Source of the DNA: Spirochaetia bacterium
Lineage (GTDB): Bacteria > Spirochaetota > Leptospiria > Turneriellales > JAOUOS01
NCBI GenBank assembly: GCA_029880265.1
Contig: JAOUOT010000002.1
Location: 117,353 to 181,352, forward strand
Length of the DNA: 64,000 nucleotides
Direction of reading: 5' to 3'
Positions 4,601-62,120 of the stretch are shown one piece after another. A program made the translations under genes and the position numbers. The notes under the pieces were generated by a model, which worked only from the letters and a program-made list of their open reading frames with translations, made no database searches and was not told the origin of the DNA. How positions within the stretch are numbered: the stretch's first letter is position 1; every line of letters begins with the position of its first letter.

Positions 4601-7600
4601 ATACTAAATCAGGAAGATTTTGATAAAGACGGTAAATTCAGCCTTATTGAAAATTCGGTTCCCATTGATTCAGAGGGAAGCGTACCCTATCTTTATTTTG
4701 AACAAACTTATAAAAATATATTATCAACAAACAACTGGCAGCTTTTTCGCGTTTATCTAAACCAGGCCGAGATGTCAGATAAACAAAAGCTTGCGTTGCG
4801 CGAAGTAAAAAGCATACGATTGTATATTGTTCCCCATTCTGATTCGACTAACGCCAGCGGCAAAATATTAATTGATTCGATAAAATTTGCCGGCACGAAA
4901 TGGAGAAAAACATATACTGAAGACTTCGGATCTTCGACAAGAAATTCTAATTATGATACAACAGTATTTCGCTCGGCCTCTATAAACAATTTTACCTCAA
5001 AAATAGAATATGAGCCAAACTCATTTCTTAAAGAAGAGCGTGATGAGTGGGAACTTTTACACGGCAAAAAAACCAATACCGAACACGCTTATATTCGCGA
5101 AGGAGCCTTGAAGCTGACATACAATTTGAATTCTACCAATGAAAAAGCTTATGCCGAAAGAATATTTATTAAGGCAATGGAACTTCAGCATTATAAAACA
5201 ATTAATTTATGGGTTAACTTTAGAACGCCTGAAATTACAGGGCATTCTTTTCTATTTCGGGTGGGCTCCAGCGAAAACGATTATTATGAATATGAATTTC
5301 CTATAAACTCGTCAGGTTGGCAAAAATTAAGCTTTGATCTGAAAAACCCTGAAAGAGAATATGGTAACTTCAATATGTTAAAGACCAATATAATGGCCGT
5401 AGGCGTTAAAAAACCTGATTCATCTTTACAATTATTAGAAGGAACTATATGGGTAAACGATATTTTTACTTCTGATCCTATTTCTGAAGATGCAAACGCT
5501 TACAAATATGAAAGTACAATAAAAATTACTAAACCGATATACAAAACCGAATCTGGCGTAGAGATAATATCTGATTTTAAGGCTACTTTTAAGAAAATTC
5601 ATAAAGACCGTTATTTCAACTCTATAGGCATATCTGAAAAATTTAAAGATATCGAAACAGACGATAAATCATGGAATATTGAAAGCAATCTTCTGCCTTT
5701 CTGGAAGGCAAACTACTTATATGAAAACAATAAAACAAACGCTTTGCCCGAAGATTTTCAGGAAGAGATGAGTTTTGACGGATTTACAAAAACAATTACT
5801 CATAACACAACGCATACAATAAAATTTAAGCCGGCATGGTATCCTGTTATTAACACAGGCTTTTTATTCAGCCGTGTTGAAAATGATCTTGAAGAAACCT
5901 TTGGAAACTCTTTTCTCAATATACGGCAGTTAACCAATAAGATAAAAAAGAATAACGCGCCGACTTTTTCTATAAAACATAAAATTCCAAAATTCCTTTC
6001 TACTCAAATTGAATATGACTTAGAAAATAAATTTAACCTTCTCTCAGAAATAGAAACCGGTTCCCTGAAAGAAGAAAACCTCCTATCTCCCAATAAAGAT
6101 AATCGTCAAAAAGAATTAACCGAAGAAACTAAAAATAACCTTAAGATAAAAATCGGCGAATTTTTAATAGAACCCGTATATTCTCACAAAAGAGTGCGTC
6201 TTTTAGAAAAAAATTATACCGATGACAGCAATATAAATATGATAAACGGCTCGTTTTACATACCCATAATTGAATCACCGAAAGATTTTAGATTCAGAGA
6301 AAGAATGACTAAATATGAATTAAAAACCGAGTACAAAAAGCTATGGATATTTTCTCCAAAAATAAAGACTGCAATTAATTACAAAGAATCTTCTTTTACC
6401 GATAATTTATCTACTTTTGATCGAGATAAGTTTCAAAGATTAAAACAACCCAGCACTTTAACCTCTTTAGAAATGAGCATTCCTGTTGAAATGAAAAATA
6501 ATTGGTTTTTATTAAATATTTTTAAAAAAATAAAGCCCGCTTTTTACCGCGAAATTAATCTAGTAGAAAAGAATATGCCGTTTACTAATATGACAGATCT
6601 TTACAAAGACGAATTTGGCTTTAATAGAACTTTGCCTCCTTTGATGAACAATACCTTTAATCTTTACGAATATCCTTTTTGGAGATTTTTTTATTCAGAT
6701 TCAACAAGAAAAAATAACAATTATTCAAACGGAAGAGATTATGTTTATAAAACTCAATATATTCCCGATATACCGCCTGAATATTCAGACTCCCTTTTAA
6801 TTTATAATAATTCTCTTTCGCTTAAAGAAAAAATATCGGGCCTGATAACGTGGGACATCTGGAAACCCTTAACATTAAGAACAGATATCAATCTTTCGCA
6901 GGAAATTAACAGACCGACTGTTGACGCTCTGCCTACGCAAAAAGCGACATGGGGATTTTTTATAGAGCAAAAATACGATTTCATGAAAATTTTTAACTTC
7001 TGGTTCTGGTCGCAAAAAAAGAAACGGCAATCAAACTTTGAATTTAATTTCAAATATGAAAGGAATATGTATATTACATTAAATCAAAAAGAAGATAAAT
7101 ATACGCCCGAAACTTCTATTTTATTTTCATGGTTCAATAAAGATAACGCTTCTACTTCTATTTCGGTTACTTTCGGTTTGAATTTAAGAATATTTAATCA
7201 TAAAGAATACATCTCTGACGAAAACGAAGACGACGCCGTTATATATCTGCAAATACCCTCTCTGCCGGAACTCGGCATTAAAGAAAAAGACACCGGCTAT
7301 GATTTTAAAATTACATATAAGACAGAACTTCCCAGTCTAAAAAAATATTTTAACGATATTACCAGCCTCAATATTAAATATCATCCCGCTTATACTTTAG
7401 ACTTTCTCATTGACTTAAATAAAGCAAATTACAATTTACCCGAAAAAAAAATCGGCGATTTAACCAATGCCTATTCTGTTAAGCAGTCTTTATCGGCAAA
7501 TTTACACGCAAATGTCAGCGGAAAGATAAGTTTTGAATATAAATATAATATTATCAAGCAAATTCAGGGAACAGTCATCGAAAAAAAGAAAACGATTTTA

Positions 7601-7630
7601 TTTGATATTGGCATTAAAATATTATTTTAA
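1679..7630 (+). CDS. giant (1983 aa) predicted outer-membrane/surface protein; possibly SprA-like (unverified)
   Basis: Uninterrupted 5.9-kb ORF with an N-terminal signal/anchor (ILLISITSIIGSFSLFYA). There are Asp-rich Ca-binding-like stretches (DTDSDGFFDTEDIGLDLINGDTNGNNIKDPGE; NRNGILDAGEESIDDGKLNLD). The C-terminal third is Y/F/N/K-rich with alternating strands and ends ...FDIGIKILF, a terminal aromatic typical of OM beta-barrels. Confidence 0.6.
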   Translation: MPNKSQIHILLISITSIIGSFSLFYANISDKNTVAVQKGKKTDPKPPTEQKINPYEESDNNSQEIELSNEDFFKYKNKQLYSKDKDLNLGKSYLDIFHPLEYKNKDVKLYIFGNMDMSTGFKYNYCDPCDQRSTATFDFDLAKNDKVVPHMKPTSMQVSVKGKLGKKINVNIDYNKDENKSENHFWIQYKTPKTSDFLQEITIGNIDLLFPKREFVVFEQSGKKTMGLESKMTRGKLNFHTIATLTQGESYTQTFIGNTKKTGKLINDHKFIRRKYYQLEPFTYYDRLTSAPIITAASYDRASGASLITLTSFTANPDTYMPNYDINIDPLSIEIYLDDRDSANDQFEGAQQKIISTGTGTDLGNFHLLKQGIDYICEFNTGRITFLKNINENYKIFVRYTHHNGSLTSTDPSARIDNGKIETFIKFGKTLHEDLNRNGILDAGEESIDDGKLNLDIYEVRGVYNLGASEILESSFTMTLVKKDLNPENELNDLGRKDINYETGIISFNLREPFKNAINSSGEFLLSDENAGVIYNESTFDYIADYSILSFRTEFSSIIHSYQLTHSNLIKNSEKVKVNAQVIASKLYYIDYKSGFFQFLDPHNPQIGSQDTIEISYEYLPFGSSSNGYILGLRTDYKATKYVNIGGTILYNGEFENAEAPQIGEAPASKLVFEGDIDVKIDEEKVTRLINTIPGIDLDLLPIQIEGYAEYAKSIYNPNTFGYALIDDMESSEESNEVPISEKDWVLSAIPPSLTGALECDRSPLYYHFYRDPEDYSKGLLDFATGPTASPAYSSLSGPYNVSDGHLDSSQLNSSQAEKQVSLVLDFDFSKTTTSNQKFASINTREFSTVGEDFSNVTYLEFYAKLKDAVNVNSGIRIAFDLGTLNEDTDSDGFFDTEDIGLDLINGDTNGNNIKDPGETWDTTERDLKLSQDQSIGLNEDIGYSFNPPGCPSANTIVGAGPNISSDPLTKGNGILNQEDFDKDGKFSLIENSVPIDSEGSVPYLYFEQTYKNILSTNNWQLFRVYLNQAEMSDKQKLALREVKSIRLYIVPHSDSTNASGKILIDSIKFAGTKWRKTYTEDFGSSTRNSNYDTTVFRSASINNFTSKIEYEPNSFLKEERDEWELLHGKKTNTEHAYIREGALKLTYNLNSTNEKAYAERIFIKAMELQHYKTINLWVNFRTPEITGHSFLFRVGSSENDYYEYEFPINSSGWQKLSFDLKNPEREYGNFNMLKTNIMAVGVKKPDSSLQLLEGTIWVNDIFTSDPISEDANAYKYESTIKITKPIYKTESGVEIISDFKATFKKIHKDRYFNSIGISEKFKDIETDDKSWNIESNLLPFWKANYLYENNKTNALPEDFQEEMSFDGFTKTITHNTTHTIKFKPAWYPVINTGFLFSRVENDLEETFGNSFLNIRQLTNKIKKNNAPTFSIKHKIPKFLSTQIEYDLENKFNLLSEIETGSLKEENLLSPNKDNRQKELTEETKNNLKIKIGEFLIEPVYSHKRVRLLEKNYTDDSNINMINGSFYIPIIESPKDFRFRERMTKYELKTEYKKLWIFSPKIKTAINYKESSFTDNLSTFDRDKFQRLKQPSTLTSLEMSIPVEMKNNWFLLNIFKKIKPAFYREINLVEKNMPFTNMTDLYKDEFGFNRTLPPLMNNTFNLYEYPFWRFFYSDSTRKNNNYSNGRDYVYKTQYIPDIPPEYSDSLLIYNNSLSLKEKISGLITWDIWKPLTLRTDINLSQEINRPTVDALPTQKATWGFFIEQKYDFMKIFNFWFWSQKKKRQSNFEFNFKYERNMYITLNQKEDKYTPETSILFSWFNKDNASTSISVTFGLNLRIFNHKEYISDENEDDAVIYLQIPSLPELGIKEKDTGYDFKITYKTELPSLKKYFNDITSLNIKYHPAYTLDFLIDLNKANYNLPEKKIGDLTNAYSVKQSLSANLHANVSGKISFEYKYNIIKQIQGTVIEKKKTILFDIGIKILF

Positions 7631-11807: not shown

Positions 11808-13154
11808 TTAAAATAATTCTGTTAATATATTCTCGGACGCTAAGCGGTATTTCAACAATCTTTTGATAAAATCGTCAGATTCTGTTTTAATATAAGCCGA
11901 CGCTAAAGAAGAATAATTTTTTATCCATTCCATTGGAATATACGCATACGCAATTTTTCTTAACGATTTATCTTTATTTCCAAATATCCATCTAATAAAC
12001 CGCCGGTTATTAAACTCGGGCAGTAAAAATATTTTTGTTAAATTCTGCTTTACTGCCGCCGCTTTCATCTCTTCAGGCATACCATCCCAAAACTCAAAAG
12101 ATTTTTCGGGCATTGTTTTTAATCTAACGCGAAAGCATGCACAGCTTATTTCTACTTTGCATCTGTCTTTTAAAATATTTTGTTCATTTGAATGCATTCT
12201 ATCATAATTTGAAGAGAACAAGTAAACGGCGCTTGTGGTTTCATTTGCGGATATAATTTGATTAAATATTTTCTTTAACCTGTCTCTTCTTGAAGAGTCG
12301 CGATGTTCCAGCGCGGTAAAATAAGACGAGATTAGCCAACGGTTTATGATAGAAGAATTTTTTTTTGCTAATTTTTCATAATCAGCCCCGTCAAATTGAT
12401 ATTTATCAATAATATTTAAGATTTGGGTTAGTCTATGTTTAGGAACCCCGCTGATATCAAAATCTAAAAAGGCGTCGGATAGATCTTTTATATTTCCTTT
12501 TTTATTTTCAGCTAAAAGAACTCCCCAAAATATATTATGTATTTCTTCTGTGTTAAGCAGTTTCGCTTCAGTTAAATATGGCTTTATTAAATCGATTATT
12601 TTGCGATCATGTTCTCTTGAAGCTAAAAACCACTCATGCCCAAGTTGAAAGCGATAAAACACCTGTTGAAACCATTCTATTTCTTCGGATCCCGGATTTT
12701 CAACCGTTTTAATAAAGTATAGCCCAAGTTTTCGGTTATCTTTTTTCTTGAATAATTTAGCCAGAATAAATCTAAATTTTTTTGAATCAATCTTTGCCAG
12801 AATCTTAACGATTTTTTCGGCAAAATTTCTCTTCTTATTTTTTTGTAAAAAAGAAAACAGCGAATTAAAGTGATTTTGGGGCAAAATAATTTCCATTTGA
12901 ATTAATATTCTATTTATAACATTCTTTGAGTTCTCTTTATATAAATGATTGAATATCTTTTCTGTCAGATTTTTATTTTTCTTTTCAAATGCCTCATTTA
13001 TCATTTTGAGTTTTTCATCGTCTGATCCAGATTCTAATTTTTTAATTAATGTTTCCTGATAGTTGTCTTTTGACTTTTTTTTTTGAACAGAATATAAAGA
13101 AGTATTCATAAATATGAATATGTAAAAGACTATAAGATAAGGCAGAATTCGCAT
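11808..13154 (-). CDS. hypothetical exported alpha-helical repeat protein
   Basis: 448-aa ORF with an N-terminal signal-like segment (ILPYLIVFYIFIFMNTSLYS). It is helical and Lys-rich, and no family was recognised. It is co-directional and tightly spaced with its neighbours. Confidence 0.45.
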   Translation of the reverse strand: MRILPYLIVFYIFIFMNTSLYSVQKKKSKDNYQETLIKKLESGSDDEKLKMINEAFEKKNKNLTEKIFNHLYKENSKNVINRILIQMEIILPQNHFNSLFSFLQKNKKRNFAEKIVKILAKIDSKKFRFILAKLFKKKDNRKLGLYFIKTVENPGSEEIEWFQQVFYRFQLGHEWFLASREHDRKIIDLIKPYLTEAKLLNTEEIHNIFWGVLLAENKKGNIKDLSDAFLDFDISGVPKHRLTQILNIIDKYQFDGADYEKLAKKNSSIINRWLISSYFTALEHRDSSRRDRLKKIFNQIISANETTSAVYLFSSNYDRMHSNEQNILKDRCKVEISCACFRVRLKTMPEKSFEFWDGMPEEMKAAAVKQNLTKIFLLPEFNNRRFIRWIFGNKDKSLRKIAYAYIPMEWIKNYSSLASAYIKTESDDFIKRLLKYRLASENILTELF

Positions 13155-21807: not shown

Positions 21808-22272
21808 ATGAAAAACAACAAGAAAAAAATGATTTTAGGCATAGGAGTTCTGCTTCTTATTGCAGCCCTTCTTTTGACAATACATCATCTTCATTCGGGA
21901 CATGAGCACAGCGAACATGAACACGGAGAAGTTTCGACCGAGATGACGCTTAACAATGGCGAGAAATGGAAAGCAGATATTCAGACAAAAAGATTTGTTA
22001 TGGCTATGATCCATTTTGTCGAGAAAGTTTCGGTCAAAGAGAATTTGACAAAAGCTGAATATATAGACGCGGGCGAGACTCTTAAGGGCAGTTTCAACTC
22101 TATCATTGCCAATTGCACCATGGAAGGGCAGGCTCATGATGAACTGCACAAATTTCTTATGAAGCTAAGCCCTAATATTGAAGAGCTTAGAAAGGGAAAC
22201 TTAGAAACCGCAAAGCATGCTTTAGAAGAAAGCAAGAATACTCTTAAGCTGTTTCAAAATTATTTCAAATAA
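21808..22272 (+). CDS. membrane-anchored His-rich protein (putative metal-binding)
   Basis: 154 aa. An N-terminal TM is followed by the cluster HHLHSGHEHSEHEHGE. It starts 18 nt after the TetR stop and has its own AGGAG RBS. Confidence 0.5.
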   Translation: MKNNKKKMILGIGVLLLIAALLLTIHHLHSGHEHSEHEHGEVSTEMTLNNGEKWKADIQTKRFVMAMIHFVEKVSVKENLTKAEYIDAGETLKGSFNSIIANCTMEGQAHDELHKFLMKLSPNIEELRKGNLETAKHALEESKNTLKLFQNYFK

Positions 22273-32423: not shown

Positions 32424-32510
32424 GGAGAGATGTCCGAGCGGTTGAAGGAGCAGCATTGGAAATGCTGTGTACGGGAAACTGTACCGAGGGTTCGAATCCC
32501 TCTCTCTCTG
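32424..32510 (+). tRNA. tRNA-Ser (anticodon GGA)
   Basis: Hand-folded. The acceptor is GGAGAGA/TCTCTCT with a terminal G-U. The D arm is GTCCGAGCGGTTGAAGGAG. The anticodon stem-loop is CAGCATTGGAAATGCTG (loop TTGGAAA). A long variable arm (GTACGGGAAACTGTAC) and T arm GAGGGTTCGAATCCCTC follow. CCA is not encoded. Confidence 0.9.
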
Positions 32511-32620
32511 AGTACAGAAAGAAAGGGGTTTGAACCCGAATAACTTAGGTTTATAAAGGTTTACTTCGGCACGATAATGGCGAATCTCTGTCTTTCTGAT
32601 TTAAAAAAAGGTTTGAGCCC

Positions 32621-33346
32621 ATGAAAAAAAAAGTATTCCTTATAGGAGCGGGTCCCGGAGATCCTACTCTATTAACTGTAAAAGCGGTTGAAACCTTAAA
32701 ACGATGCGACGCGGTACTTTATGATCAGCTTGTCAGCAAAGAAATCTTAAAATTATGCCCTAAAGACGCAGAATTTGTGTTCGCCGGTAAATATAAAAAT
32801 AAGCATATATTAACGCAAGATGAAATAAATAAAAAACTTCTTGATTTAACGCTTTCTCATAATATTATAGGACGACTAAAAGGAGGCGACCCTTTTATTT
32901 TTGGCAGAGGGGGCGAAGAAATTGAATACCTGAGAAATCATGGCATAGAAACCGAGGTGATTCCGGGAATTTCAGCGGCTCAAGGCGCGGCGGCGGCCCT
33001 TCAGATACCCCTTACTCACAGAGAACTTTCTTCAGAGCTGGTTTTTTTAACAGGACACAAGAAAAAAGATCTGGGATATCACGATTTTTCTCTGCTGACT
33101 CTTGAAAAAAAAACATATATTATTTATATGGGTATTTCTATAATCGAAGACATCATTTCAAAAATTCTTTCAAATAAGAATAATAACCCGCAAACGCCAA
33201 TCGCCGTAATTGAAAACGCAACAAAAGAAAACCAGAGAATTTTTACTGGAACGATATCGAACATTATGGAAAAAATAAAAAATAATCACCTTATATCTCC
33301 CACTTTGCTTATCATAGGAGACACCATATCGTTTATACAAGAATAA
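32621..33346 (+). CDS. cobA: uroporphyrinogen-III C-methyltransferase (SUMT; CobA/NirE-type)
   Basis: 241 aa. VFLIGAGPGDPTLLTVKAVETLKRCDAVLYDQLV and RLKGGDPFIFGRGGEE are class III methyltransferase signatures. Confidence 0.85.
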   Translation: MKKKVFLIGAGPGDPTLLTVKAVETLKRCDAVLYDQLVSKEILKLCPKDAEFVFAGKYKNKHILTQDEINKKLLDLTLSHNIIGRLKGGDPFIFGRGGEEIEYLRNHGIETEVIPGISAAQGAAAALQIPLTHRELSSELVFLTGHKKKDLGYHDFSLLTLEKKTYIIYMGISIIEDIISKILSNKNNNPQTPIAVIENATKENQRIFTGTISNIMEKIKNNHLISPTLLIIGDTISFIQE

Positions 33347-46730: not shown

Positions 46731-49424
46731 ATGAAATGGATTCAAAAAAAAGAAATAAACTCAGATAAAAATATTCCCTGGTTTTCAAAAATCAATGATA
46801 TGACAAATGCATCAAATTCGCAGAGAGTCTATGAAAACATTGATGATCAAATCGATACCGAACCTGAAAAAGAATTTGAGCAAATCGCCCGCTGGGAAGA
46901 AAATACAAAAGAAAATATAAAAGAAAATGATTTTCGCGAAAATCAATATTTAACGGCTGACACGAAAAAAACCTCTTTTTCTACAACGCAAGAAAAAGTA
47001 AATAACAACCATGAAATTAAATATTTCCAAAATTTACCTCATTATACTCAAAATAAAAATGAAAATTTAGAGCCTAATTATCGATATGAAAATTTAAATT
47101 TTGCGAAAGAAAGTAAAGCCTTCGACAATGTTCAGGAAAATAAATCAAGCGAACTTTCGGCCTCTAAACGCATTTTAAATCATATAGAGAAAGGCCTTCA
47201 AGAGCAAAATAATTATGCGATTCATAGTCAAGAATTAACTGAACGGCTTAAAAATAAAGAGATTTTTTCAAAATCTGAGTTTGACAAATCCAATGTAACT
47301 GAAAATGAAGAATCTTATTTTTCTAAAATAAAACATAAGCATAACGAGAGATTAAATTTTAAAACTCCCTGGCTTGAGAAAACGAAAAAAGAAGAAAAAG
47401 AAAAACTATCGTGGTTAAAAAAATATGAAATTATTGAAAATGAAAACATTATTCCAGCCGATAAAATTGGCAAGATTACGGATTCTTATAAATCTTACAA
47501 TCAAAGCTCTCGCCATGAGAATAAATCAGATTGTTCTTTTCAAAAAATCAACGCTATTCCCGTTAATGACGCCGATTATTTTATCGATAATATTGAATTT
47601 TCAAAAAATTTTGATTTTGAAAATGATCCAAGTCTTACAACCCCCCTTGAAAGCGCGGGACCGTTATTAGAGAATCTCCCCGCTATTGATAAAAATGAAG
47701 ATTTTAAAGAGAACAAAAAACCTGTATTTAATGTTCCTATTATAAACGGTCTGGCAGATTCGATTCAAAAACCCAAAGTTCATATTGATGAAAATATTTT
47801 CGAAAAAGAAGAAAGCGAAAACAAAGAAGAAGATATAAATATAGGCGTAGATTATGACCAAACTAATGACAATCAACATATTCTAGAAAATGATAAAGAA
47901 GAAGAGATTAGTATTGAAAAGACTTTACCGGCAACCAAAGAAGCAAATCAAGTTAAAAATCAAAGTTCCAATTATGAAAGAGCGTCTATCACGCCCATTA
48001 TTCAACTGACCAGACAATATAATCTTCCTTTTAGTTTGTTATCAAAACAGGAAAATCTCTCAGCCGCAAGAAACAACGAAGAAACGCAATCAATAATAGA
48101 TACTCTCGAGACAACTTTGCGTCAATTTAATATTGAAGGACGCGTAGTCGGAATTCAAACCGGACCTATCATTACGAGATACGAAGTAAAAATGCCCCCT
48201 GGCGTTAAAGTAAATAAAATATTGGCCTTAACAGACGAATTGGCGATGGCGCTGGAGGCGTTAAAAGTAAGAATAGAGGCGCCAATTCCGGGAAGATCAA
48301 CGGTCGGCATAGAAATACCCAATAAAAAAAGATCTCTGGTATTGTTAGGGGATTTGATAAACAATGACTCATATAAAGAAACAAATAAGGCCCTTCCCTT
48401 GCCGATGGGAAAAGATATCGCTGGCAATCTGGTCATTGAAGATCTAAGCCGCATGCCGCATATTTTAATAGCGGGAGCCACCGGTTCGGGAAAGTCAGTC
48501 GCGGTAAATTCTTTTATTTCAAGCTTGATTTTGACAAAGAGCCCCGAAGAAGTCAGGTTTCTATTAGTGGATCCAAAACTTGTAGAACTATCGCATTATA
48601 ACGACATACCGCATCTTCTTCATCCCGTGATTACAGATTCACAAAAAGCGATTTTAGCGTTAAACTGGGCAGTAGAAGAAATGGAGAGACGATATGAAGA
48701 TCTGGCCGAATTACGCGTTAGAGATATACGCACATATAACGAAAAAATAAACGAATATCGCGAAGAGAATAAATCTGATAAAGAAAACCGTCCTTTAATG
48801 CCGTATATTGTCGTTTTAATTGACGAATTAGGCGATTTAATGCTTGTCGCGGGCAAAGAAGTTGAGGCGTCAATCATCAGACTTTCACAAAAAGCCAGAG
48901 CCGTAGGAATTCATCTTATTTTGGCCACCCAAAGACCGTCTGTAGACGTTATTACGGCTCTAATCAAGGCAAACTGCCCCGCCAGAATAGCCCTGCAGGT
49001 TGCGCAAAAAACCGATTCCAGAACTATTCTTGATTCTAACGGAGCCGAACAATTAATCGGCGCCGGAGATATGCTGTTTAAGCATCCTTCTCACACGGCC
49101 CTTTTAAGGGTACAGGCTCCTCTGGTATATGACGAAGAAGTTGACGATATCGTACAATATGTCAAAGATCTTGGCAGGCCGTCTTATATAACACTGGAAG
49201 ATCCTAAGTCAAATAACGGTTCTCTTGACATTGGCGAAGAAGACCTTTTTGAAGAAGCATGGCAAATTATTATTGAAAGTCAAAAAGCATCAGCAAGCTA
49301 TCTGCAAAGACGACTTCGCATAGGATACAACAGAGCTGCCAGAATTATTGAAGCGATGGAAGCAAGGGGATATATTGGGCCCCAGATAGGCTCAAAACCA
49401 AGAGAAATTTTATTAAATCCATAA
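46731..49424 (+). CDS. ftsK: DNA translocase FtsK/SpoIIIE family (motor plus gamma domain; no N-terminal TM region seen)
   Basis: Walker A is GATGSGKSV and Walker B is VVLIDELGDLM. ILATQRPSVDVIT is present, as is the gamma winged helix ASYLQRRLRIGYNRAARIIEAMEARGYIGP. The first ~420 aa are polar and low-complexity. Confidence 0.9.
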   Translation: MKWIQKKEINSDKNIPWFSKINDMTNASNSQRVYENIDDQIDTEPEKEFEQIARWEENTKENIKENDFRENQYLTADTKKTSFSTTQEKVNNNHEIKYFQNLPHYTQNKNENLEPNYRYENLNFAKESKAFDNVQENKSSELSASKRILNHIEKGLQEQNNYAIHSQELTERLKNKEIFSKSEFDKSNVTENEESYFSKIKHKHNERLNFKTPWLEKTKKEEKEKLSWLKKYEIIENENIIPADKIGKITDSYKSYNQSSRHENKSDCSFQKINAIPVNDADYFIDNIEFSKNFDFENDPSLTTPLESAGPLLENLPAIDKNEDFKENKKPVFNVPIINGLADSIQKPKVHIDENIFEKEESENKEEDINIGVDYDQTNDNQHILENDKEEEISIEKTLPATKEANQVKNQSSNYERASITPIIQLTRQYNLPFSLLSKQENLSAARNNEETQSIIDTLETTLRQFNIEGRVVGIQTGPIITRYEVKMPPGVKVNKILALTDELAMALEALKVRIEAPIPGRSTVGIEIPNKKRSLVLLGDLINNDSYKETNKALPLPMGKDIAGNLVIEDLSRMPHILIAGATGSGKSVAVNSFISSLILTKSPEEVRFLLVDPKLVELSHYNDIPHLLHPVITDSQKAILALNWAVEEMERRYEDLAELRVRDIRTYNEKINEYREENKSDKENRPLMPYIVVLIDELGDLMLVAGKEVEASIIRLSQKARAVGIHLILATQRPSVDVITALIKANCPARIALQVAQKTDSRTILDSNGAEQLIGAGDMLFKHPSHTALLRVQAPLVYDEEVDDIVQYVKDLGRPSYITLEDPKSNNGSLDIGEEDLFEEAWQIIIESQKASASYLQRRLRIGYNRAARIIEAMEARGYIGPQIGSKPREILLNP

Positions 49425-49810
49425 CATTGAAACGTTTTCTATCTATTCAAAAAAAATGAGCATATTTTTTTATTTTTTTTTATGGCGCTTATTTAAAATT
49501 ATTTTTTCAAAAAAAGGTTGACACAATAACTCTTCATGTTGCCTTGTTTGGTTTCATATAGAAACTGTTAATAAGGGTTTTTATGCAATTAACCTTGAGC
49601 CGAATAACTATTCAAATAAAACGAGTATGTAACCTAATGTATCTTAGCAAAAGCGAGATAAGAAAATGAATAATTGTTTAATTAAGCGTTCAAGGGCATA
49701 AGCAATTCTTAATAACGAATGTCGGTTAAAGTATAAACGGCAAGTTTCTAAAATCTGAACTCAAATTATATAGAGTTTAGATAATGAAACCAAAAACTAA
49801 GGAGAAAAGA

Positions 49811-51415
49811 ATGAAGAAAACTTTGAAGTTCTTAACGCCTATGCTAGCGGCATCATTTATGTTTTGCGGCGGCGGTGGTGGTAAAGATGTGCCTGCAGGA
49901 GCAGAACTTACTGAAGCCGAATTTCAAGAAGCAAACACCGTATATTTTCAAAGATGCGGCGGATGCCATGGTACTTTGAGAAAAGGCGCTACCGGTAAGC
50001 CTCTTACTCCCGATAAAACCATTGAAAAAAGCATAGAAAAACTGACAAATATTATCGCAAAAGGTACCGATGGGGGTATGCCTGGGCTAGCTACTACCGG
50101 TGAAATAACCGAAAAACAAGCAAATTTGCTGGCAAAGTATATCCAGAACAAGCCGGTTGCTCCGCCTGAATATAACATGAAAGACGTAAAAGCAACCTGG
50201 AAACTACATGTGCCATTAGAAAAAAGACCTAAAAAGGTTATGCACAAGAGAAATCTTGATAATATGTTTGCGGTGATTTTAAGAGACGCGGGTCAAATCG
50301 GTATTATTGACGGAGACACAAAAGAAATGTTTTCAGTCATTGATTCAGGATATGCCGTACACACTCTTAGATATTCTGCTTCAGGTCGATATCTTTATAC
50401 AATCGGACGTGATGCTAAAGCGACTATCGTAGACCTTTGGATGGATCCTCCGGCATTGGTTGCTGAAGTAAAAACAGGTATTGAAGCAAGATCAATTGAT
50501 AGTAGTAAATACAAAGGTTTTGAAGATAAGTATGCGGTTGTCGGAAATTACTGGCCGCCAAACTACGTAATGCTTGATGGATTAACGCTTGAACCATTAA
50601 AAATTGTTGGTACAAGAGGTTATACTTATGACACCAATGAGTATCATCAAGAGCCTAGAGTTGCTTCAATTGTAGCTTCGCATCACAACCCTGAATGGGT
50701 ATTGAATGTAAAAGAAGCTGGTATCGTATTACTAGTTGACTACAGTAAACTAGCTCAAGGCACTGTTACTGAGACAAGAATCAACGCAGAAAGATTTCTT
50801 CATGACGGCGGTTGGGATCATACCAAAAGGTATTTTCTTGTTGCCGCGAACATGAGAGATAAAATGGTTGTGATTGATACGAAACTAAGAACACGCGCAG
50901 CTATTGTGAAAACCGGAGTTAAACCTCACCCTGGTAGAGGCGCTAACTTTAAAGATCCTAAATATGGCTGGGTATACGCTACTCCACACTTAGGCGAGCC
51001 GAATGTAGCCCTAATAGGTACTGATCCTGGTCCAAACCAGTGGAAAGTTGTAAGAACTCTAAAGCCTGCGGGCGACGGAGGATTATTTCTTAAAACGCAT
51101 CCAAAATCAAAAAATCTTTGGGTAGACCATCCGCTTGCTAAAGATAATAAAATTCATAGAAGCGTATCAGTATTCAATATAAACGACCTTGACGCTCCGC
51201 CAAAAGTTATTGAACTTGGCGATAGGGGCCGAATTGTTCACTTTGAATACAATAAAGCCGGGGATGAAGTTTGGATCGCTCTTTGGGATAAAAAAGGCGA
51301 AATGATTATAATGGACGATAAAACATTAAAAGAAAAAGCCAGAATTAAAGATCCTAAAATGGTTACTCCTACAGGTAAATTTAACGTATTTAATACAATG
51401 CGTGATATCTACTAA
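49811..51415 (+). CDS. nirS: cytochrome cd1 nitrite reductase
   Basis: The haem c site is FQRCGGCHG. The d1 propeller strings are RYSASGRYLYTIGRD, YWPPNYVMLDG, EPRVASIVASH, AERFLHDGGWD, PHPGRGANF and VTPTGKFNVFNTMRDIY. These parallel Pseudomonas/Paracoccus NirS along the full length. I prefer the ATG at 49811 (AAGGAG 6 nt upstream) over the ORF-track start at 49784. Confidence 0.9.
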   Translation: MKKTLKFLTPMLAASFMFCGGGGGKDVPAGAELTEAEFQEANTVYFQRCGGCHGTLRKGATGKPLTPDKTIEKSIEKLTNIIAKGTDGGMPGLATTGEITEKQANLLAKYIQNKPVAPPEYNMKDVKATWKLHVPLEKRPKKVMHKRNLDNMFAVILRDAGQIGIIDGDTKEMFSVIDSGYAVHTLRYSASGRYLYTIGRDAKATIVDLWMDPPALVAEVKTGIEARSIDSSKYKGFEDKYAVVGNYWPPNYVMLDGLTLEPLKIVGTRGYTYDTNEYHQEPRVASIVASHHNPEWVLNVKEAGIVLLVDYSKLAQGTVTETRINAERFLHDGGWDHTKRYFLVAANMRDKMVVIDTKLRTRAAIVKTGVKPHPGRGANFKDPKYGWVYATPHLGEPNVALIGTDPGPNQWKVVRTLKPAGDGGLFLKTHPKSKNLWVDHPLAKDNKIHRSVSVFNINDLDAPPKVIELGDRGRIVHFEYNKAGDEVWIALWDKKGEMIIMDDKTLKEKARIKDPKMVTPTGKFNVFNTMRDIY

Positions 51416-51424
51416 GAGTAAACT

Positions 51425-51459
51425 AAAAAAGAGGGAGTTCTATACTCCCTCTTTTTTTA
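51425..51459 (+). terminator. rho-independent terminator after nirS
   Basis: The stem agagggag/ctccctct with a 7-nt loop is preceded by A6 and followed by T7. Confidence 0.8.
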
Positions 51460-51527
51460 TTTATAATTAATAAATCAAAAAGCTTAAAATTACACATCTA
51501 TAAAATATTTTAATTAAGGAGAAAGTG

Positions 51528-51950
51528 ATGAGAAGAACGATAGGAATAATAATACCAATCATGATGATTATGGGATTAATATATTGCGGCGAAGATAGAG
51601 TATTGCCAGAAGCTCCCGCGGAATATAAAAGCAAAAAAAATCCCATTGCAGAATCTGCTGACGCTATAGCGGCCGGCGAAGCTATTTATAAAAAGAAATG
51701 CGAAAAATGTCACGGTAACAGTGGTGACGGAAAAGGCAAAAATGCTGAAAATCTTGAAAATAAACCCATAGATTTAACCAAACCGGGATACATGGCAGGA
51801 AGATCAGACGGGCAGCTTTTCTGGTTTATAGTAACCGGCGGCAAAAAAGGAAATGAAATGGACGGGTACGGTCCGGGCACTAGCGATAACCTTTCAGAAG
51901 AAGATATTTGGAAAAGTATTTTATACTTAAGAAAAAACTTCACAAAATAA
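51528..51950 (+). CDS. small class I c-type cytochrome (NirM/NirC-like candidate electron donor)
   Basis: About 140 aa, with a signal peptide containing a Cys (MGLIYCG), the haem site CEKCHG and a distal Met region (GNEMDGYG). AAGGAG lies 6 nt before the ATG at 51528; the ORF track starts one codon earlier at a GTG. Confidence 0.8.
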   Translation: MRRTIGIIIPIMMIMGLIYCGEDRVLPEAPAEYKSKKNPIAESADAIAAGEAIYKKKCEKCHGNSGDGKGKNAENLENKPIDLTKPGYMAGRSDGQLFWFIVTGGKKGNEMDGYGPGTSDNLSEEDIWKSILYLRKNFTK

Positions 51951-51977
51951 ACATAGGAATATTTTTCAACACCATAT

Positions 51978-52006
51978 AAGGGAGGCCTATTCAGCCTCCC
52001 TTTTTA
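51978..52006 (+). terminator. rho-independent terminator after the cytochrome c gene
   Basis: The stem gggaggc/gcctccc with a 7-nt loop is followed by T5. Confidence 0.75.
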
Positions 52007-52026
52007 TTAAAACACCGTAAATATTT

Positions 52027-53466
52027 ATGAGAACAAATAAAAAAAGATTTAACATCAAAGGACATTTTTATATTTCAATATTTCTTTTAATCTCAGTTAA
52101 TTTCAACTGTAAAGAACAAGAGAATTCAAAAATATTATATTTAACCCATTGCTCGCCTTGTCATCATCCTGAGCGTTTTGGAATTTCGGCTCCGCCTTTG
52201 ATTCCTGAAACCTTAAAGCGAAAAAAAGATGGGGAGCTAAAAGAAATTATAAAAGACGGCCTCACGGCAACCAATATGCAGCCTTTTCGCGAAAAACTAA
52301 GCGACACTGATATTGAATCTATAATAAATTATATTCGTCAACCTGCGGGCGATATAAAATGGGATATAAACAATATTAGGCTGTCTAAAAATATTCCCAA
52401 AAAAAAGGGATTAAAAATCAAACCAGTATTAGACCTTATGAATTTATTTATGATTGTAGAAGGCGGCAAGGGTCTAGTGCATTTTATGAATGGAGATAAT
52501 TTTAATTTGCTTGATAATGTCTACGTGGGTCCCATTCATGGAGGACCCAAATTCGATAAAGAAATGAAATACGCTTATATGGGAAGCCGTTCGGGCTGGC
52601 TGGTAAAATATTCGTTAGAAGACTGGAAAGATGCCGGCAGAATACGTGCAGGCGTTAATATGCGAAATATCGCAATTTCTCCAGACGGTTCTCTTTTAGC
52701 CGCAGCCAACAGCCTTCCTGAAAATATCGTCATTATTGATTCGAAGACATTAGACCCTATTAAGGTGATTGAAGCAAAAGGAAAACCCTCGGCTGTATAC
52801 TCGCTTAAAAACGGCGAGGCGTTTATCGTATGTTTTCGAAATAATAAAGAATTATGGTTCATTAATTATTCTGATTTATCCATTGAAAAAATTACCGTAG
52901 ACCAGCCATTTTCAGATTTTTTTATCGGTCCTGACGAAAGATATTTTATCGGAGCCGCAAGAAACGCAAAACATATCAGTATATTTGATATTCAGTCTAA
53001 GAAGATTGTTAAAAGTATTGAAACAAAAGGCATGCCCCATTTGGCCTCGGCGGCTCTATGGAAGCAAGGTAAAAAATATCTTGCCGCTTTTCCGCATATT
53101 GGAACTCCTTTTTTAACAATTGTCGATATTGATACATGGAAAATTGAAAAATCTATTAAATTAAAAGGCTCTGGTTTTTTTGCGAGAACTCATCATAATA
53201 TTAAACATATATGGGCCGATTCAAACACCAATACCATACAACTTATAGATAAAAAAACAATGGAAATAACAAACGAAGTAACGCCTGATACGGGAAAAAA
53301 AGCAATGCATATTGAATTTACAAAGAATGGAGAATATGCCCTTGTTTCATTATGGGATAAAGACGGAGCAGTTGTCTTTTATGATACTAAAACCCTAACC
53401 GAAAAGTTGCGACTTCCCTTCATTAAACCAGTAGGAAAATATAACGCTACCAATAAAAAATATTAA
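52027..53466 (+). CDS. cytochrome c plus cd1-type beta-propeller protein (NirN/NirF-like, haem d1 maturation candidate)
   Basis: 479 aa. The N-terminal haem c site is CSPCHH, with ATNMQPF as the Met ligand region. A propeller of NirS/NirN/NirF type follows (HGGPKFD, YALVSLWDKDGAVVFYDTKTL, VGKYNATN). The length and c-haem favour NirN. Confidence 0.65.
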   Translation: MRTNKKRFNIKGHFYISIFLLISVNFNCKEQENSKILYLTHCSPCHHPERFGISAPPLIPETLKRKKDGELKEIIKDGLTATNMQPFREKLSDTDIESIINYIRQPAGDIKWDINNIRLSKNIPKKKGLKIKPVLDLMNLFMIVEGGKGLVHFMNGDNFNLLDNVYVGPIHGGPKFDKEMKYAYMGSRSGWLVKYSLEDWKDAGRIRAGVNMRNIAISPDGSLLAAANSLPENIVIIDSKTLDPIKVIEAKGKPSAVYSLKNGEAFIVCFRNNKELWFINYSDLSIEKITVDQPFSDFFIGPDERYFIGAARNAKHISIFDIQSKKIVKSIETKGMPHLASAALWKQGKKYLAAFPHIGTPFLTIVDIDTWKIEKSIKLKGSGFFARTHHNIKHIWADSNTNTIQLIDKKTMEITNEVTPDTGKKAMHIEFTKNGEYALVSLWDKDGAVVFYDTKTLTEKLRLPFIKPVGKYNATNKKY

Positions 53467-53497
53467 CTGCTTTATTGAACCGGGTTCAATAAAGCAG
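53467..53497. terminator. shared hairpin between the convergent nirN-like gene and the flagellar operon
   Basis: A near-perfect 15-bp inverted repeat (ctgctttattgaacc g ggttcaataaagcag) starts 1 nt after the plus-strand stop. It covers the minus-strand stop codon. On the minus strand a T-rich tail follows (ttaatatttttt). Confidence 0.55.
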
Positions 53498-54149
53498 CGT
53501 TATTCTCGCTCATTGATTCAAGTTTTTTCTCAATATCGACGTCGATGTTATTATTTTGCTCGATAGGCGGCAAAAGCATTTTTCTGCTTATTTCTGCTCT
53601 CCTTTTCGGCTCAAACAATGTTAATAGATATGAAACGATCGATTGCCTTCCCTCTAATTCGGCGGTTTTATCCATTTGTCTGAAAACTTCAATAATATCA
53701 AAATCGCGCCAGTCTTCCATCATTTCTTTTGCTTTTTCGGGGGGCATGCTTGCTACTTTTTGCGCCATATCTTCGATTCTTTTATTTCTGTATTCCCAAT
53801 CTTTTTTTTGCATTAAAAAATTTTTCTGTTCTTCAAGCATACTTACGGCATATTCGTTCAATATTTTTTTATCTCGTTTATAACCGGCTATTTTTTGCTC
53901 GAATTCTACTTCTTTTGCGGCAAGCTTTTCTTCTCTTTCTGCAAGCATTTCTTCCCATTTGTTATAGCTTACTTTTTCTACTATAGACGGGTTTTCTTTA
54001 TCTTCCAGCACCGGGGGGTTTTTCGGAGCCAGAAATGGGATATAAGACGATACTTGGGTAATTCCCATATTATCTAATACAAATACAAATATCCCCGAAA
54101 AAAAGAATATCGTTAAAATCAGTAAAAAAACTGTTTTTCGTTCTGTCAT
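53472..54149 (-). CDS. FlbB / MotE-like flagellar protein (MgtE_N-like)
   Basis: 225 aa with an N-terminal TM and a coiled coil. The C-terminal string is PPEKAKEMMEDWRDFDIIEVFRQMDKTAELEGRQSIVSYLLTLFEPKRRAEISRKM. It lies after fliJ as in spirochaete flgB operons, with AAGGAG 9 nt upstream. Confidence 0.45.
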   Translation of the reverse strand: MTERKTVFLLILTIFFFSGIFVFVLDNMGITQVSSYIPFLAPKNPPVLEDKENPSIVEKVSYNKWEEMLAEREEKLAAKEVEFEQKIAGYKRDKKILNEYAVSMLEEQKNFLMQKKDWEYRNKRIEDMAQKVASMPPEKAKEMMEDWRDFDIIEVFRQMDKTAELEGRQSIVSYLLTLFEPKRRAEISRKMLLPPIEQNNNIDVDIEKKLESMSENNAALLNPVQ

Positions 54150-54174
54150 AATTAATACTCCTTATTATTTATTC

Positions 54175-54354
54175 TTATGCCGGAATATTCTTTTTTATTT
54201 TTGTTAAAATCAGGCACAATTTATCCAGTTCCCGTTCTAATTTAAATATTTTTTTTCTTATCAAATGATATTTAATTTTTATCTGATACGTTTTTTTTAT
54301 ATATGAACTCTTTATGTCCCATATTTTCTTCGTCTTCTTTATTTTCATCAACAT
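54175..54354 (-). CDS. small basic hypothetical ORF (59 aa) between fliJ and the FlbB-like gene
   Basis: Below the ORF-track cutoff and translated by hand: MLMKIKKTKKIWDIKSSYIKKTYQIKIKYHLIRKKIFKLERELDKLCLILTKIKKNIPA. It starts 5 nt after the fliJ stop and is co-directional with the operon. It may simply be an AT-rich chance ORF. Confidence 0.25.
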   Translation of the reverse strand: MLMKIKKTKKIWDIKSSYIKKTYQIKIKYHLIRKKIFKLERELDKLCLILTKIKKNIPA

Positions 54355-54359
54355 ACTTC

Positions 54360-54809
54360 CTAAACCTCCATCGCCTTTTTGTTTCTTACAAACTGCTCGT
54401 CTAAAAACTTAATTTCTTCGCGGGCTATTTCATATTTATATTCTCTTTCTTTTTTTTCTTTAATAATTTCTATTACCCTTTTTTTCTTTCGCGTTTCAAT
54501 TACTTTTTCCCTTTTTCTTTGAAGAATTGGTTCTATTTCAATATATCTTCTTTCTGCAATATTTTTCTTCTTTTTCAACATGTTTAAATACAAAGAAGCC
54601 ATTTTTTGAAATTTTGCGTCATATTGCCCCATTCTTAATTTATCGGCTTCATTATATGAAATTCGAGTTGATTCAATGTTATATTGCCTTATATGATTAT
54701 TTATTTTTTCTACTTCGCTTACAGTTTTTGATAAATCAGTCAAGGCGGTTTTCTCTTCTAATTCTTTTAATTTCAAAAAACTCTCTAATTTAAACTTAAA
54801 TTTCTTCAT
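54360..54809 (-). CDS. fliJ: flagellar export chaperone FliJ
   Basis: 149 aa and all coiled coil. The N-terminus is FKFKLESFLKLKELEEK, and the gene lies immediately after fliI. Confidence 0.7.
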   Translation of the reverse strand: MKKFKFKLESFLKLKELEEKTALTDLSKTVSEVEKINNHIRQYNIESTRISYNEADKLRMGQYDAKFQKMASLYLNMLKKKKNIAERRYIEIEPILQRKREKVIETRKKKRVIEIIKEKKEREYKYEIAREEIKFLDEQFVRNKKAMEV

Positions 54810-61553: not shown

Positions 61554-62120
61554 ATGAAAAAGAAAATCAAACCATTCTTGTTACTAGGCGGCCTTAGTTT
61601 AATAGCGGTAACATACGCTATTTATTCTCAAAGCGCGCATAGCAATTTATCAGATCCCGTGATGTTAAAAAAGTTTAAATATATTTCTGAAAGGCTCATG
61701 TGTCCCTGCGGATGCGCGCTGCCTTTAAATACCTGCAATATGTCTGACTGCATAGCGTGGGACATGAGAAAATCTGTTGAAATTCTCTTGAAATCGGGAC
61801 AATCTGAAGAATTCATTATTAACGGATTTATAAACGGCTTTGGGCCCCTTATCGACACCGACCCTGCGTTTAGGCACATGTCTTCAGGGGTTAAAAATTT
61901 ATTTCGCAGAGGTATGGGCGAAGAGGGCTTTACCGAGCCATACAACAGAAATCCCGAAATTTGGATAGCCGTATCGGCTGTTTTATTTTCTGCAATAGCC
62001 GGATGGTTTATTCGCTCTCATTTTCGCAAAATAAATCTTGCAAAAACCGGCAAAGAAAAAGAACAGGAAAAAACAACCGAAAAAGAAGAAGAACTCTATA
62101 AAAAATTGTACGACGAATAA
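61554..62120 (+). CDS. CcmH/NrfF-family-like cytochrome c maturation protein (variant CPCGC motif)
   Basis: A signal peptide is followed by ISERLMCPCGCALPLNTC and MRKSVEILLKSGQSEEFIINGFINGFG. The latter compares with E. coli CcmH LRQKVYELMQEGKSKKEIVDYMVARYG. A C-proximal TM is also present, so the architecture matches CcmH. Confidence 0.5.
   Translation: MKKKIKPFLLLGGLSLIAVTYAIYSQSAHSNLSDPVMLKKFKYISERLMCPCGCALPLNTCNMSDCIAWDMRKSVEILLKSGQSEEFIINGFINGFGPLIDTDPAFRHMSSGVKNLFRRGMGEEGFTEPYNRNPEIWIAVSAVLFSAIAGWFIRSHFRKINLAKTGKEKEQEKTTEKEEELYKKLYDE

Follow-up and report, generated by a model that had tools for sequence, protein, structure and literature searches.

A probably functional and anciently acquired nirS-cytochrome c-nirN cassette in an uncultured spirochaete from the sediment of San Francisco Bay

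The DNA analyzed here, referred to as the window, is a stretch of 64,000 nucleotides (nt) of contig JAOUOT010000002.1 from the metagenome-assembled genome (MAG) of an uncultured spirochaete, obtained from sediment of the San Francisco Bay estuary. Its host probably belongs to the family JAOUOS01 of the Turneriellales, Leptospiria. At 49811-53466, the plus strand of the window encodes a nitrite reductase of the cytochrome cd1 type (nirS), a cytochrome c with a single haem, and a NirN protein. These genes probably represent a functional cassette that was acquired by the JAOUOS01 lineage in ancient times.

The cassette proteins and their counterparts in a sister genus

The cassette consists of three co-directional open reading frames (ORFs) at 49784/49811-51415 (543/534 amino acids, aa), 51525/51528-51950 (141/140 aa), and 52027-53466 (479 aa). 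The protein encoded by the first ORF covers positions 2-368 of the 368 positions of the Pfam profile Cytochrom_D1 (5.5e-124) and additionally contains a c-haem domain of the Cytochrome_CBB3 family (6.9e-10). It can be aligned end to end with the structures of NirS from P. aeruginosa (E 1.9e-182) and P. pantotrophus (~1e-173) in the PDB, while the matches to the paralogues NirN (1.9e-40) and NirF (3.5e-09) are far weaker. In the numbering of the 543-aa form, the residues C58, C61, H62, M99, H193, H340, and H382 are invariant in an alignment of seven sequences and correspond to C47, C50, H51, M88, H182, H327, and H369 of the P. aeruginosa enzyme, positions which in this enzyme bind the c-haem, provide the d1 haem with its proximal ligand, and form the distal pair of catalytic histidines. 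The protein combines a c-haem domain bearing the CXXCH motif (C58-G-G-C61-H62) and the axial methionine ligand M99 with a d1 propeller bearing the proximal and both distal histidines, is closer to bona fide NirS than to NirN or NirF, and nests within the NirS tree. Judged from its sequence, this NirS is genuine and complete. The full-length NirS that had been proposed in a preliminary description of this DNA is thereby confirmed, and the motifs quoted there for NirS, the cytochrome, and the third protein are all present in the translations.

With NirS of P. aeruginosa (1nir/1bl9) and P. pantotrophus (1qks/1aof), the enzyme shares the c-haem domain and the eight-bladed d1 propeller, and the CXXCH motif, the methionine ligand, the proximal d1 histidine, and both distal histidines are retained. 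In contrast to these soluble, Sec-exported enzymes, which come from proteobacterial rather than spirochaete hosts and have an N-terminal arm, it has a lipobox-type signal peptide followed by a glycine linker and no tyrosine in the arm region. Translation of nirS (49811-51415, plus strand) likely starts at the ATG at 49811, yielding a protein of 534 aa, because this codon is preceded by the Shine-Dalgarno sequence AAGGAG 8 nt upstream and because NirS of the sister genome described below starts at the same position; the ORF itself opens at 49784. In the GenBank entry MDH5719413.1 (PGAP, 508 aa), which is labelled as nitrite reductase, the protein starts at V36 and the signal peptide with the lipobox is lost. 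A JGI call of 543 aa is also on record, in the cluster of P0121. Searches for exact copies of NirS, translated from either start codon, had no match.

The second gene (51528-51950, plus strand) encodes a monohaem class I cytochrome c with the haem motif CEKCH. It has 140 aa when started at ATG 51528, with GTG 51525 as a possible alternative, and was also called at 140 aa in the Logan assembly. The presence of a class I cytochrome c behind nirS, as described before, is supported by the Pfam families Cytochrome_CBB3 (5.7e-10) and Cytochrom_C (6.3e-09), and the best matches in the PDB are small cytochromes of the c552 type. Homologs with 47-53% identity are encoded directly 3' of nirS in Magnetococcales and at other loci. 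The cytochrome is presumed to be the electron donor of NirS and would pass its electrons to the c-haem of this enzyme.

The third gene (52027-53466, plus strand) encodes a protein of 479 aa with the haem motif CSPCH, in which a c-haem domain (Cytochrome_CBB3) is fused to a d1-type β-propeller (Cytochrom_D1, 2.1e-73). The earlier assignment to a NirN or NirF type can now be narrowed to NirN. Among PDB entries, the protein is closest to NirN of P. aeruginosa (6rtd, E 1.1e-94, residues 34-477), compared with 3.9e-20 for NirF and 4.7e-19 (~1e-19) for NirS, and the motifs HGGPKF and GMPHL are kept in the alignment with 6rtd. Furthermore, nirN is the third gene of the nir cluster in the window, in the sister genome, in the donor-like locus L092 described below, and at other loci. 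An identification as NirF was rejected on account of the c-haem domain and the match to 6rtd. NirN is presumably the dihydro-haem d1 dehydrogenase, by which haem d1 synthesis is concluded in the periplasm. The periplasmic NirN of the cassette would accordingly turn dihydro-haem d1 into the finished haem d1 that NirS receives.

In all three proteins, a cysteine follows the hydrophobic segment (NirS ASFMFC-GGGGG, cytochrome GLIYC-GED, NirN VNFNC-KEQ; hyphens mark the position behind the cysteine). The residues at position -1 of these lipobox-like sites (F, Y, and N) are atypical outside spirochaetes, in which lipoproteins are very abundant. NirN of the sister genome has the canonical lipobox LISGC-K, and its cytochrome has no lipobox cysteine. 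When the window NirS is compared with its 25 nearest relatives, the two spirochaete enzymes are the only ones with the cysteine and the glycine linker. This suggests that the signal peptides of the cassette proteins may have been converted to the lipoprotein type. NirS would thus be located in the periplasm, probably tethered to the membrane by an N-terminal lipid anchor, and would reduce nitrite to nitric oxide (NO) at its d1 haem. All three proteins would be exported and matured by the Ccm system.

A second copy of the cassette is located in the MAG 8_1_Oct_SF_Bin24, which has been assigned to Spirochaetota; Leptospiria; Turneriellales; f__JAOUOS01 (PMC12687941). It was found on the independently assembled 120-kb contig JAOUOS010000007.1 (L001, also L094), which carried the single close NirS (92%) in a scan of one genome per GTDB species. 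The genus JAOUOT01 (8_1_Oct_SF_Bin25) is a sister genus of that of Bin24 and was recovered from the same sample, and the completeness of both MAGs is ~93% each (PMC12687941). L001 aligns to the window only over 49799-53466, with 73.7% nucleotide identity. Both copies have the same three genes, a conserved upstream block at about -290, two internal hairpins, the lipobox cysteine on NirS and NirN, and a nirN stop codon that is 4-5 nt from a convergent gene. In the window, the cassette is flanked by ftsK and flbB, whereas that of L001 is flanked by proA and a ResA/TlpA-like gene; moreover, the cytochrome of L001 lacks a lipobox cysteine, and no hairpin follows its nirN. None of the flanking genes of L001 (smc, mnmG, nadD, and proA upstream; the ResA/TlpA-like gene and ahcY downstream) occurs in the window. 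The two loci are unrelated. The ResA/TlpA-like thiol-disulfide oxidoreductase gene (L001 13631-14167, minus strand) converges on nirN; proteins of this type are used in cytochrome c maturation, and a functional association may exist.

The two copies share 91% (NirS), 51% (cytochrome), and 70% (NirN) of their amino acid residues. At four-fold degenerate sites, nirS is identical at 44% and the other two genes at 35% and 24%, chance identity being ~33% as calculated from the base composition of the four-fold sites of nirS. Because the protein identities are high in comparison to the near-chance identity of four-fold sites, all three cassette genes are under purifying selection, and the two copies were separated long ago. 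As a calibration for the host backbone, ten genes of the window were compared with their counterparts at L082, the locus of the nearest non-identical FliI relative P0002. These had 49-96% protein identity (FliG 96%, FliI 74%) and a pooled four-fold identity of 0.283, so that the conservation of the NirS protein is high but not unique among backbone genes. For the predicted conversion of nitrite to NO by NirS, purifying selection provides only indirect support.

Upstream block, leader and hairpins

The cassette is preceded by 359 nt of non-coding DNA (386 nt to the likelier start of nirS) with 27% GC. The AT-rich region of ~360 bp that had been pointed out previously is therefore real, but its GC content is typical for the intergenic DNA of this genome (25.3 +/- 5.3% in 21 regions >80 nt, among which it is the third longest). 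It contains a conserved block (TTATTTTTTCAAAAAAAGGTTGACA, 49498-49523, plus strand) consisting of a T/A-run followed by the -35-like hexamer TTGACA. This 28-nt block (TTATTTTTTCAAAAAAA[G/A]GTTGACA) is identical to L001 9672-9697 at 27 of 28 positions, is found 288 nt before the start codon in the window and 292 nt before it in L001, and occurs only once in each sequence. Its conservation contrasts with the near-saturated synonymous sites of the cassette genes. The block is probably a promoter or operator of the cassette, and transcription would probably start at this site, ~290 nt upstream of nirS, which would give rise to a long structured leader. A 24-nt direct repeat (49440-49463 and 49605-49628, 83% identical, 165 nt apart) is also located upstream of nirS. 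Its second copy overlaps a semi-conserved block of L001 (GAGC..AATAACT..TCA), and the repeat may represent a repeated binding site.

The AT-rich leader, a putative 5' untranslated region (49524-49810, plus strand), ends in the Shine-Dalgarno sequence of nirS. Its predicted fold (49524-49815) has a minimum free energy of -71.5 kcal/mol (z -6.26), and none of 200 shuffled sequences was as good. The leader of L001 (9698-9993) has diverged in sequence and also folds stably (-60.4 kcal/mol, z -4.31), with none of 200 shuffles reaching this stability. No Rfam family matched either leader at permissive thresholds, and RNAalifold yielded a weak consensus, a common structure not being demonstrable from two sequences. 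On the basis of these folding models, the nirS leader could be an undescribed regulatory leader RNA.

A hairpin after each gene had been described previously, and all three are real. The first (51425-51457, plus strand), located 3' of nirS, consists of a 14-bp stem with an A-run before and a T-run after it, as in terminators of the bidirectional type (-22.9 kcal/mol, z -6.4). Its equivalent in L001 (11621-11638) has the same GGGAGT/ACTCCC core (-17.3 kcal/mol, z -5.3). The second (51978-52002, plus strand), located 3' of the cytochrome c gene, has a 9-bp G+C-rich stem followed by a T-run (-15.8 kcal/mol, z -6.1) and corresponds to L001 ~12157-12186 (GGGAGG.../...CCTCC, -15.9 kcal/mol, z -4.1). 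The third (53467-53497, on neither strand in particular) is a perfect inverted repeat with 15-bp arms (I12, 100% complementary) at the convergent junction of nirN and flbB. This hairpin (-18.1 kcal/mol, z -4.5) is 5 nt from the nirN stop codon and differs from the other two in having no T-run on the plus strand and in reaching into flbB on the minus strand, of which it includes the 8 final codons together with the stop; at the end of nirN in L001 there is no equivalent (-1.5 kcal/mol, z +1.0). A scan of 49300-54400 revealed 9 terminator-like sites versus 4.2 +/- 1.8 in shuffled sequences.

From these hairpins it had been suggested that the cassette comprises three separately terminated units, which is not established. 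Three independent transcription units, each with its own promoter and full terminator, would agree with the stable hairpin behind each gene, with the T-runs of the two internal hairpins and their retention in L001, and with the AT-rich spacers of 109 and 76 nt, which could hold promoters. However, the sole conserved non-coding block resembling a promoter is the one upstream of nirS, and promoter-like matches in the region are as frequent as in shuffled sequences (17 versus 17.2 +/- 4.0). In addition, the third hairpin lacks the T-run on the plus strand, overlaps flbB, and is absent from L001, and the gene trio travels in conserved order across phyla. This organization is therefore unlikely, and a single operon with internal attenuating or stabilizing hairpins fits at least as well. 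In such an operon, the two intergenic hairpins would terminate or stabilize part of the transcript, resulting in a graded output with NirS highest and NirN lowest.

Counter-evidence, haem d1 supply and the wider pathway

Several observations weigh against a functional cassette of ancient origin. The four-fold identity of nirS (0.44) exceeds the host background (0.28; z 3.9), and nirS may have been exchanged between both genera after their split instead of being inherited strictly vertically; codon selection could be another cause of this synonymous similarity. The attribution of the window to 8_1_Oct_SF_Bin25, and of L082 to the same MAG as L001, was inferred from accession order, the shared sample, and GC content; peptides of the window had no match in the published data on these MAGs, and neither did a ChaN protein of Bin25 in the window. 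The conserved upstream block is not followed by an obvious -10 hexamer at 16-18 nt. If the hairpins with T-runs were full terminators, as they could be, internal promoters would be needed, and none was identified. No homologs of nirJ, nirF, and nirDLGH were detectable in the window or in the 21.6 kb around the L001 cassette, and the 120 best matches of a homology search with the L092 NirJ, most of which are unnamed, include none labelled as a spirochaete protein. Finally, no NO reductase is tabulated for Bin24 and Bin25 (PMC12687941).

At the approximately 20 non-spirochaete loci that were compared, nirN adjoins nirJ in almost all cases, and nirF, nirDLGH, and a gene for uroporphyrinogen-III C-methyltransferase (SUMT) are usually found nearby. 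In P. aeruginosa, the genes are arranged in the order nirSMCFDLGHJEN. As in this operon, nirS of the window is followed by a gene for a small c-type cytochrome, and a NirN with strong orthology is present. In contrast to it, the cassette has only 3 of the 11 genes, with nirF, nirDLGH, nirJ, and nirE not included, and its cytochrome resembles c552-type proteins in its best PDB matches and is not similar to c551/NirM. By its gene content, the spirochaete cassette is truncated to components predicted to be periplasmic, and the remaining genes of d1 synthesis would have to be located elsewhere in the genome. A stand-alone SUMT of the CobA/NirE type is encoded in the window at 32621-33346 (plus strand; TIGR01469 274.5 bits, cutoff 185; Pfam TP_methylase 4.7e-50), and its best matches at nirS loci are methyltransferase genes with 39-45% identity in 32 of 80 loci. 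SUMT catalyzes the first committed step towards sirohaem and haem d1. The enzyme could supply precorrin-2 for either of these cofactors, and a link to the cassette is only a possibility. The gene directly follows a tRNA gene (region 32424-33346) and is the sole gene for tetrapyrrole modification in the window.

It is improbable that the cassette is a relic or has been repurposed, with nirJ, nirDLGH, and nirF absent from the genome and NirS either inactive or dependent on d1 or its precursor taken up from denitrifiers in the neighbourhood, NirN finishing the cofactor in the periplasm. Such a scenario would account for the fact that both spirochaete cassettes keep the periplasmic components alone, given the adjacency of nirN and nirJ at nearly all other loci, and it would agree with the failure to find d1-synthesis homologs in the window or L001 or a spirochaete protein among the 120 NirJ matches, as well as with the high completeness of the MAGs. 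On the other hand, all three genes have been kept under strong purifying selection in two genera that separated long ago, which speaks for an active enzyme. Moreover, the 64 kb and 21.6 kb that were covered are parts of genomes of roughly 3 Mb, the NirJ matches were the 120 best and mostly unnamed, and the window does encode a stand-alone SUMT. To our knowledge, no organism has ever been shown to take up haem d1, which also counts against this scenario. Also improbable is the idea that JAOUOS01 spirochaetes are haem d1 auxotrophs which keep only lipid-anchored NirS, its cytochrome donor, and NirN as the periplasmic end of the pathway, take up d1 or dihydro-d1 from neighbouring denitrifiers, and control expression by a structured leader RNA not described before. 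If true, a cd1 nitrite reductase that depends on cofactor cross-feeding would be without precedent.

Regarding the other steps of denitrification, no nor, nos, or nap genes are present in the 64-kb window. For Bin24 and Bin25, the published tables list nirS, nosZ, and napA as present and norB (K04561, COG3256, PF00115), norC, nirK, and narG as absent (PMC12687941 supplement file 4). The Leptonemataceae MAG 8_1_Oct_SF_Bin1, also from the Leptospiria, is likewise tabulated with nirS, nosZ, and napA but with no norB, norC, or PF00115 (PMC12687941 supplement file 4); its nirS did not turn up among the close relatives of the window gene. NO reductase and any terminal oxidase of the haem-copper oxidase family PF00115 thus appear to be missing or unrecognized in Bin24, Bin25, and Bin1. 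Taken together, the published tables and the window do not contain a complete denitrification pathway (nar/nap, nir, nor, nos).

Origin, age and significance of the cassette

Relatives of NirS were sought among 5.8 billion proteins. After the sister copy, the next relatives are 70-76% identical and either unnamed or labelled as Deltaproteobacteria, Sulfurisoma, or Thermodesulfovibrionales. A neighbour-joining tree was calculated from 60 sequences and 533 columns with 200 bootstraps. In it, the spirochaete enzymes form a pair (200/200) which is sister to an unnamed sequence (183/200) and lies within a clade of 40 sequences (200/200). The named members of this clade are Deltaproteobacteria-labelled MAGs, Thermodesulfovibrionales, and Sulfurisoma, while Magnetococcales, Nitrospinota, and the classical proteobacterial enzymes lie outside it. 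The closest non-spirochaete NirS proteins (70-76%) are encoded by clusters of the Deltaproteobacteria bacterium GWC2_42_11 type (L092/L093) and by the relatives P0122-P0140. L092/L093 share the gene order nirS-cytochrome c-nirN with the window but differ in having a cupredoxin gene and nirJ after nirN, a SUMT gene upstream, a GC content of 0.41, ordinary Sec signal peptides, and a NirN with only 47% identity to that of the window. In L092 (NirS 76%), the SUMT gene is divergent and is followed by nirS-cytochrome c-nirN-cupredoxin-nirJ. In L090 (NirS 71%), the order is nirS-cytochrome c-nirF-nirDL-nirG-nirH ... nirJ-nirN. In this relative with 63% GC, nirH and nirJ are separated by two toxin-antitoxin pairs, one made up of a ParD-like protein and its partner and the other of BrnT/BrnA (L090 15766-17093). 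A metagenome scan with NirN revealed no further cassettes of the spirochaete type, the next matches being 57-58% identical.

Both MAGs of the sister family JAOUFE01 have nirS = 0 in the published tables (PMC12687941). Together with the nesting of NirS and the gene order of L092, this points to a horizontal transfer by which the JAOUOS01 lineage received the cassette from a donor with an L092-type cluster; the suspected horizontal origin is thus upheld by the tree, in which the pair nests in a non-spirochaete clade. A non-spirochaete donor with the same gene order would have passed the cassette to the ancestor of the family or, long ago, to each of the two genera. In the course of this process, the cytoplasmic d1-synthesis genes would have been lost or never brought along, the signal peptides would have become those of lipoproteins, and the loci would have come to differ between the genera.

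A codon anomaly of nirS had been noted before as a possible sign of foreign origin. However, the GC content at third codon positions (GC3) of nirS is 0.306 compared with a background of 0.318 +/- 0.058, and its synonymous-codon likelihood falls in the range seen for other genes. The observed/expected ratio of CpG (1.05) is the lowest among genes >200 aa but only ~1.5 standard deviations below the background of 1.41 +/- 0.25. Because codon, GC3, and CpG statistics are indistinguishable from the genome background, the compositional argument for a foreign origin fails. CpG is over-represented in the coding genes of the window (~1.41 +/- 0.25) at 35% GC, and the two lowest ratios are those of nirS and of an ORF of 154 aa at 21808-22272 (0.77). 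The GC content of the cassette follows that of each host, with 0.373 versus 0.351 in the window and 0.347 versus 0.326 in L001, compared with 0.41-0.63 for donor-like loci. As GC3 and codon use are host-like and the synonymous sites of the two copies are near saturation, the transfer is ancient and ameliorated and not recent.

To its left, the cassette is flanked by uppP (BacA) and ftsK. Its immediate neighbour to the right is flbB (minus strand, convergent with nirN), which matches the NCBIfam equivalog NF047368 with 157.6 bits (cutoff 110) and encodes the spirochaete collar protein of periplasmic flagella. Beyond flbB follow fliJ, fliI, fliH, fliG, fliF, fliE, flgC, and flgB and then a CcmH-like gene. 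The flanks given in the preliminary description, uppP-ftsK and fliJ...flgB, are therefore correct except that flbB precedes fliJ. The window FliI is 100% identical to a GenBank protein recorded under 'MAG: Spirochaetia bacterium' on a contig of 335,701 bp, and the NirS entry MDH5719413.1 precedes it by five accessions. Its nearest non-identical relative, at L082, is followed by proteins from Leptospirales, Leptospiraceae, and Turneriella with 59-65% identity, and these relatives and the flbB profile match bear out the earlier suggestion of a spirochaete related to Leptospira. The flagellar operon is kept up to flbB in all four relatives examined, and the next gene differs each time. It is never ftsK, contrary to the expectation that ftsK would abut the flagellar operon in relatives without the cassette. 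The site of the cassette is thus a general synteny breakpoint, and a clean insertion ('empty') site does not exist. Between ftsK and flbB, no integrase or transposase ORFs were found, no tRNA gene adjoins the cassette, and a search for border repeats revealed only AT-rich matches at chance level (I3, 72% complementary). The cassette therefore has none of the features of a mobile island or transposon, i.e., an integrase or transposase, flanking repeats, or a tRNA target.

The CcmH-like cytochrome c maturation protein is encoded at 61554-62120 (plus strand, Pfam CcmH 8.4e-12). A CcmH-like gene is also found next to flgB in the nearest relative L082 (3992-4564), an odd but conserved pairing with the flagellar operon. 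Because the same gene flanks flgB in L082, it is to be counted among the backbone genes of the host instead of the cassette genes and is part of the general machinery for c-haem attachment that is needed by all three cassette proteins. A very large ORF of 1983 aa with a hydrophobic segment at its N-terminus is located at 1679-7630 of the window.

A recent horizontal acquisition, by which the cassette would have been inserted behind ftsK, next to the flagellar operon, so lately that its codon usage is still foreign, would fit the position of the cassette at a synteny breakpoint, where the neighbour behind flbB varies between relatives, its different locus in the sister genus, and the low CpG ratio of nirS. 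It is nevertheless very improbable, as GC3, codon likelihood, and CpG are all within or close to the range of the host, the GC content of the cassette tracks each host and not the donor-like clusters, the nearest non-spirochaete NirS is just 76% identical, and neither an integrase or transposase nor meaningful border repeats were found. Host-like composition and the near-saturated synonymous sites of the two spirochaete copies led to its rejection. An artefact of assembly or binning, by which the cassette of another organism was joined to spirochaete DNA, is scarcely credible in spite of the metagenomic source and the rarity of nirS in Spirochaetota: the cassette is located inside a contig of 335.7 kb that also carries flbB, fliI, and the rest of the operon and has spirochaete-specific genes on either side of it, an independent Logan assembly of run SRR7132593 reproduces the nirN/flbB junction, the composition is that of the host, and the independently assembled 120-kb spirochaete contig carries the orthologous cassette in its own low-GC context.

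Among the 80 best NirS matches in GTDB species representatives, only one is from a spirochaete. The assumption that nirS is an unusual trait for this lineage thus holds in that the gene is rare in Spirochaetota. It is, however, neither unique nor unannotated, as it is carried by two genera of one family, is tabulated for a third MAG of the Leptospiria, and is named as nitrite reductase in GenBank. In the main text of the study that described these MAGs, reverse Dsr in Leptospirae MAGs is discussed, while their nirS is never mentioned (PMC12687941). Literature searches for nirS in Leptospiria or Turneriellales yielded no dedicated report. Since the enzyme is textbook knowledge, the gene is annotated, and its presence was tabulated in a paper from 2025, the advance lies in the interpretation and not in a discovery. 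As an old transfer across phyla in which the periplasmic module alone was kept and refitted with lipoprotein signals, the cassette would be a clean example of its kind. Spirochaetes are not normally counted as denitrifiers, and results with nirS primers and marker surveys are mostly attributed to Proteobacteria. A conserved NirS that is under selection in two Turneriellales genera which, according to the published tables, also have napA and nosZ but no recognized NO reductase would add these spirochaetes to the partial denitrifiers of estuarine sediments.

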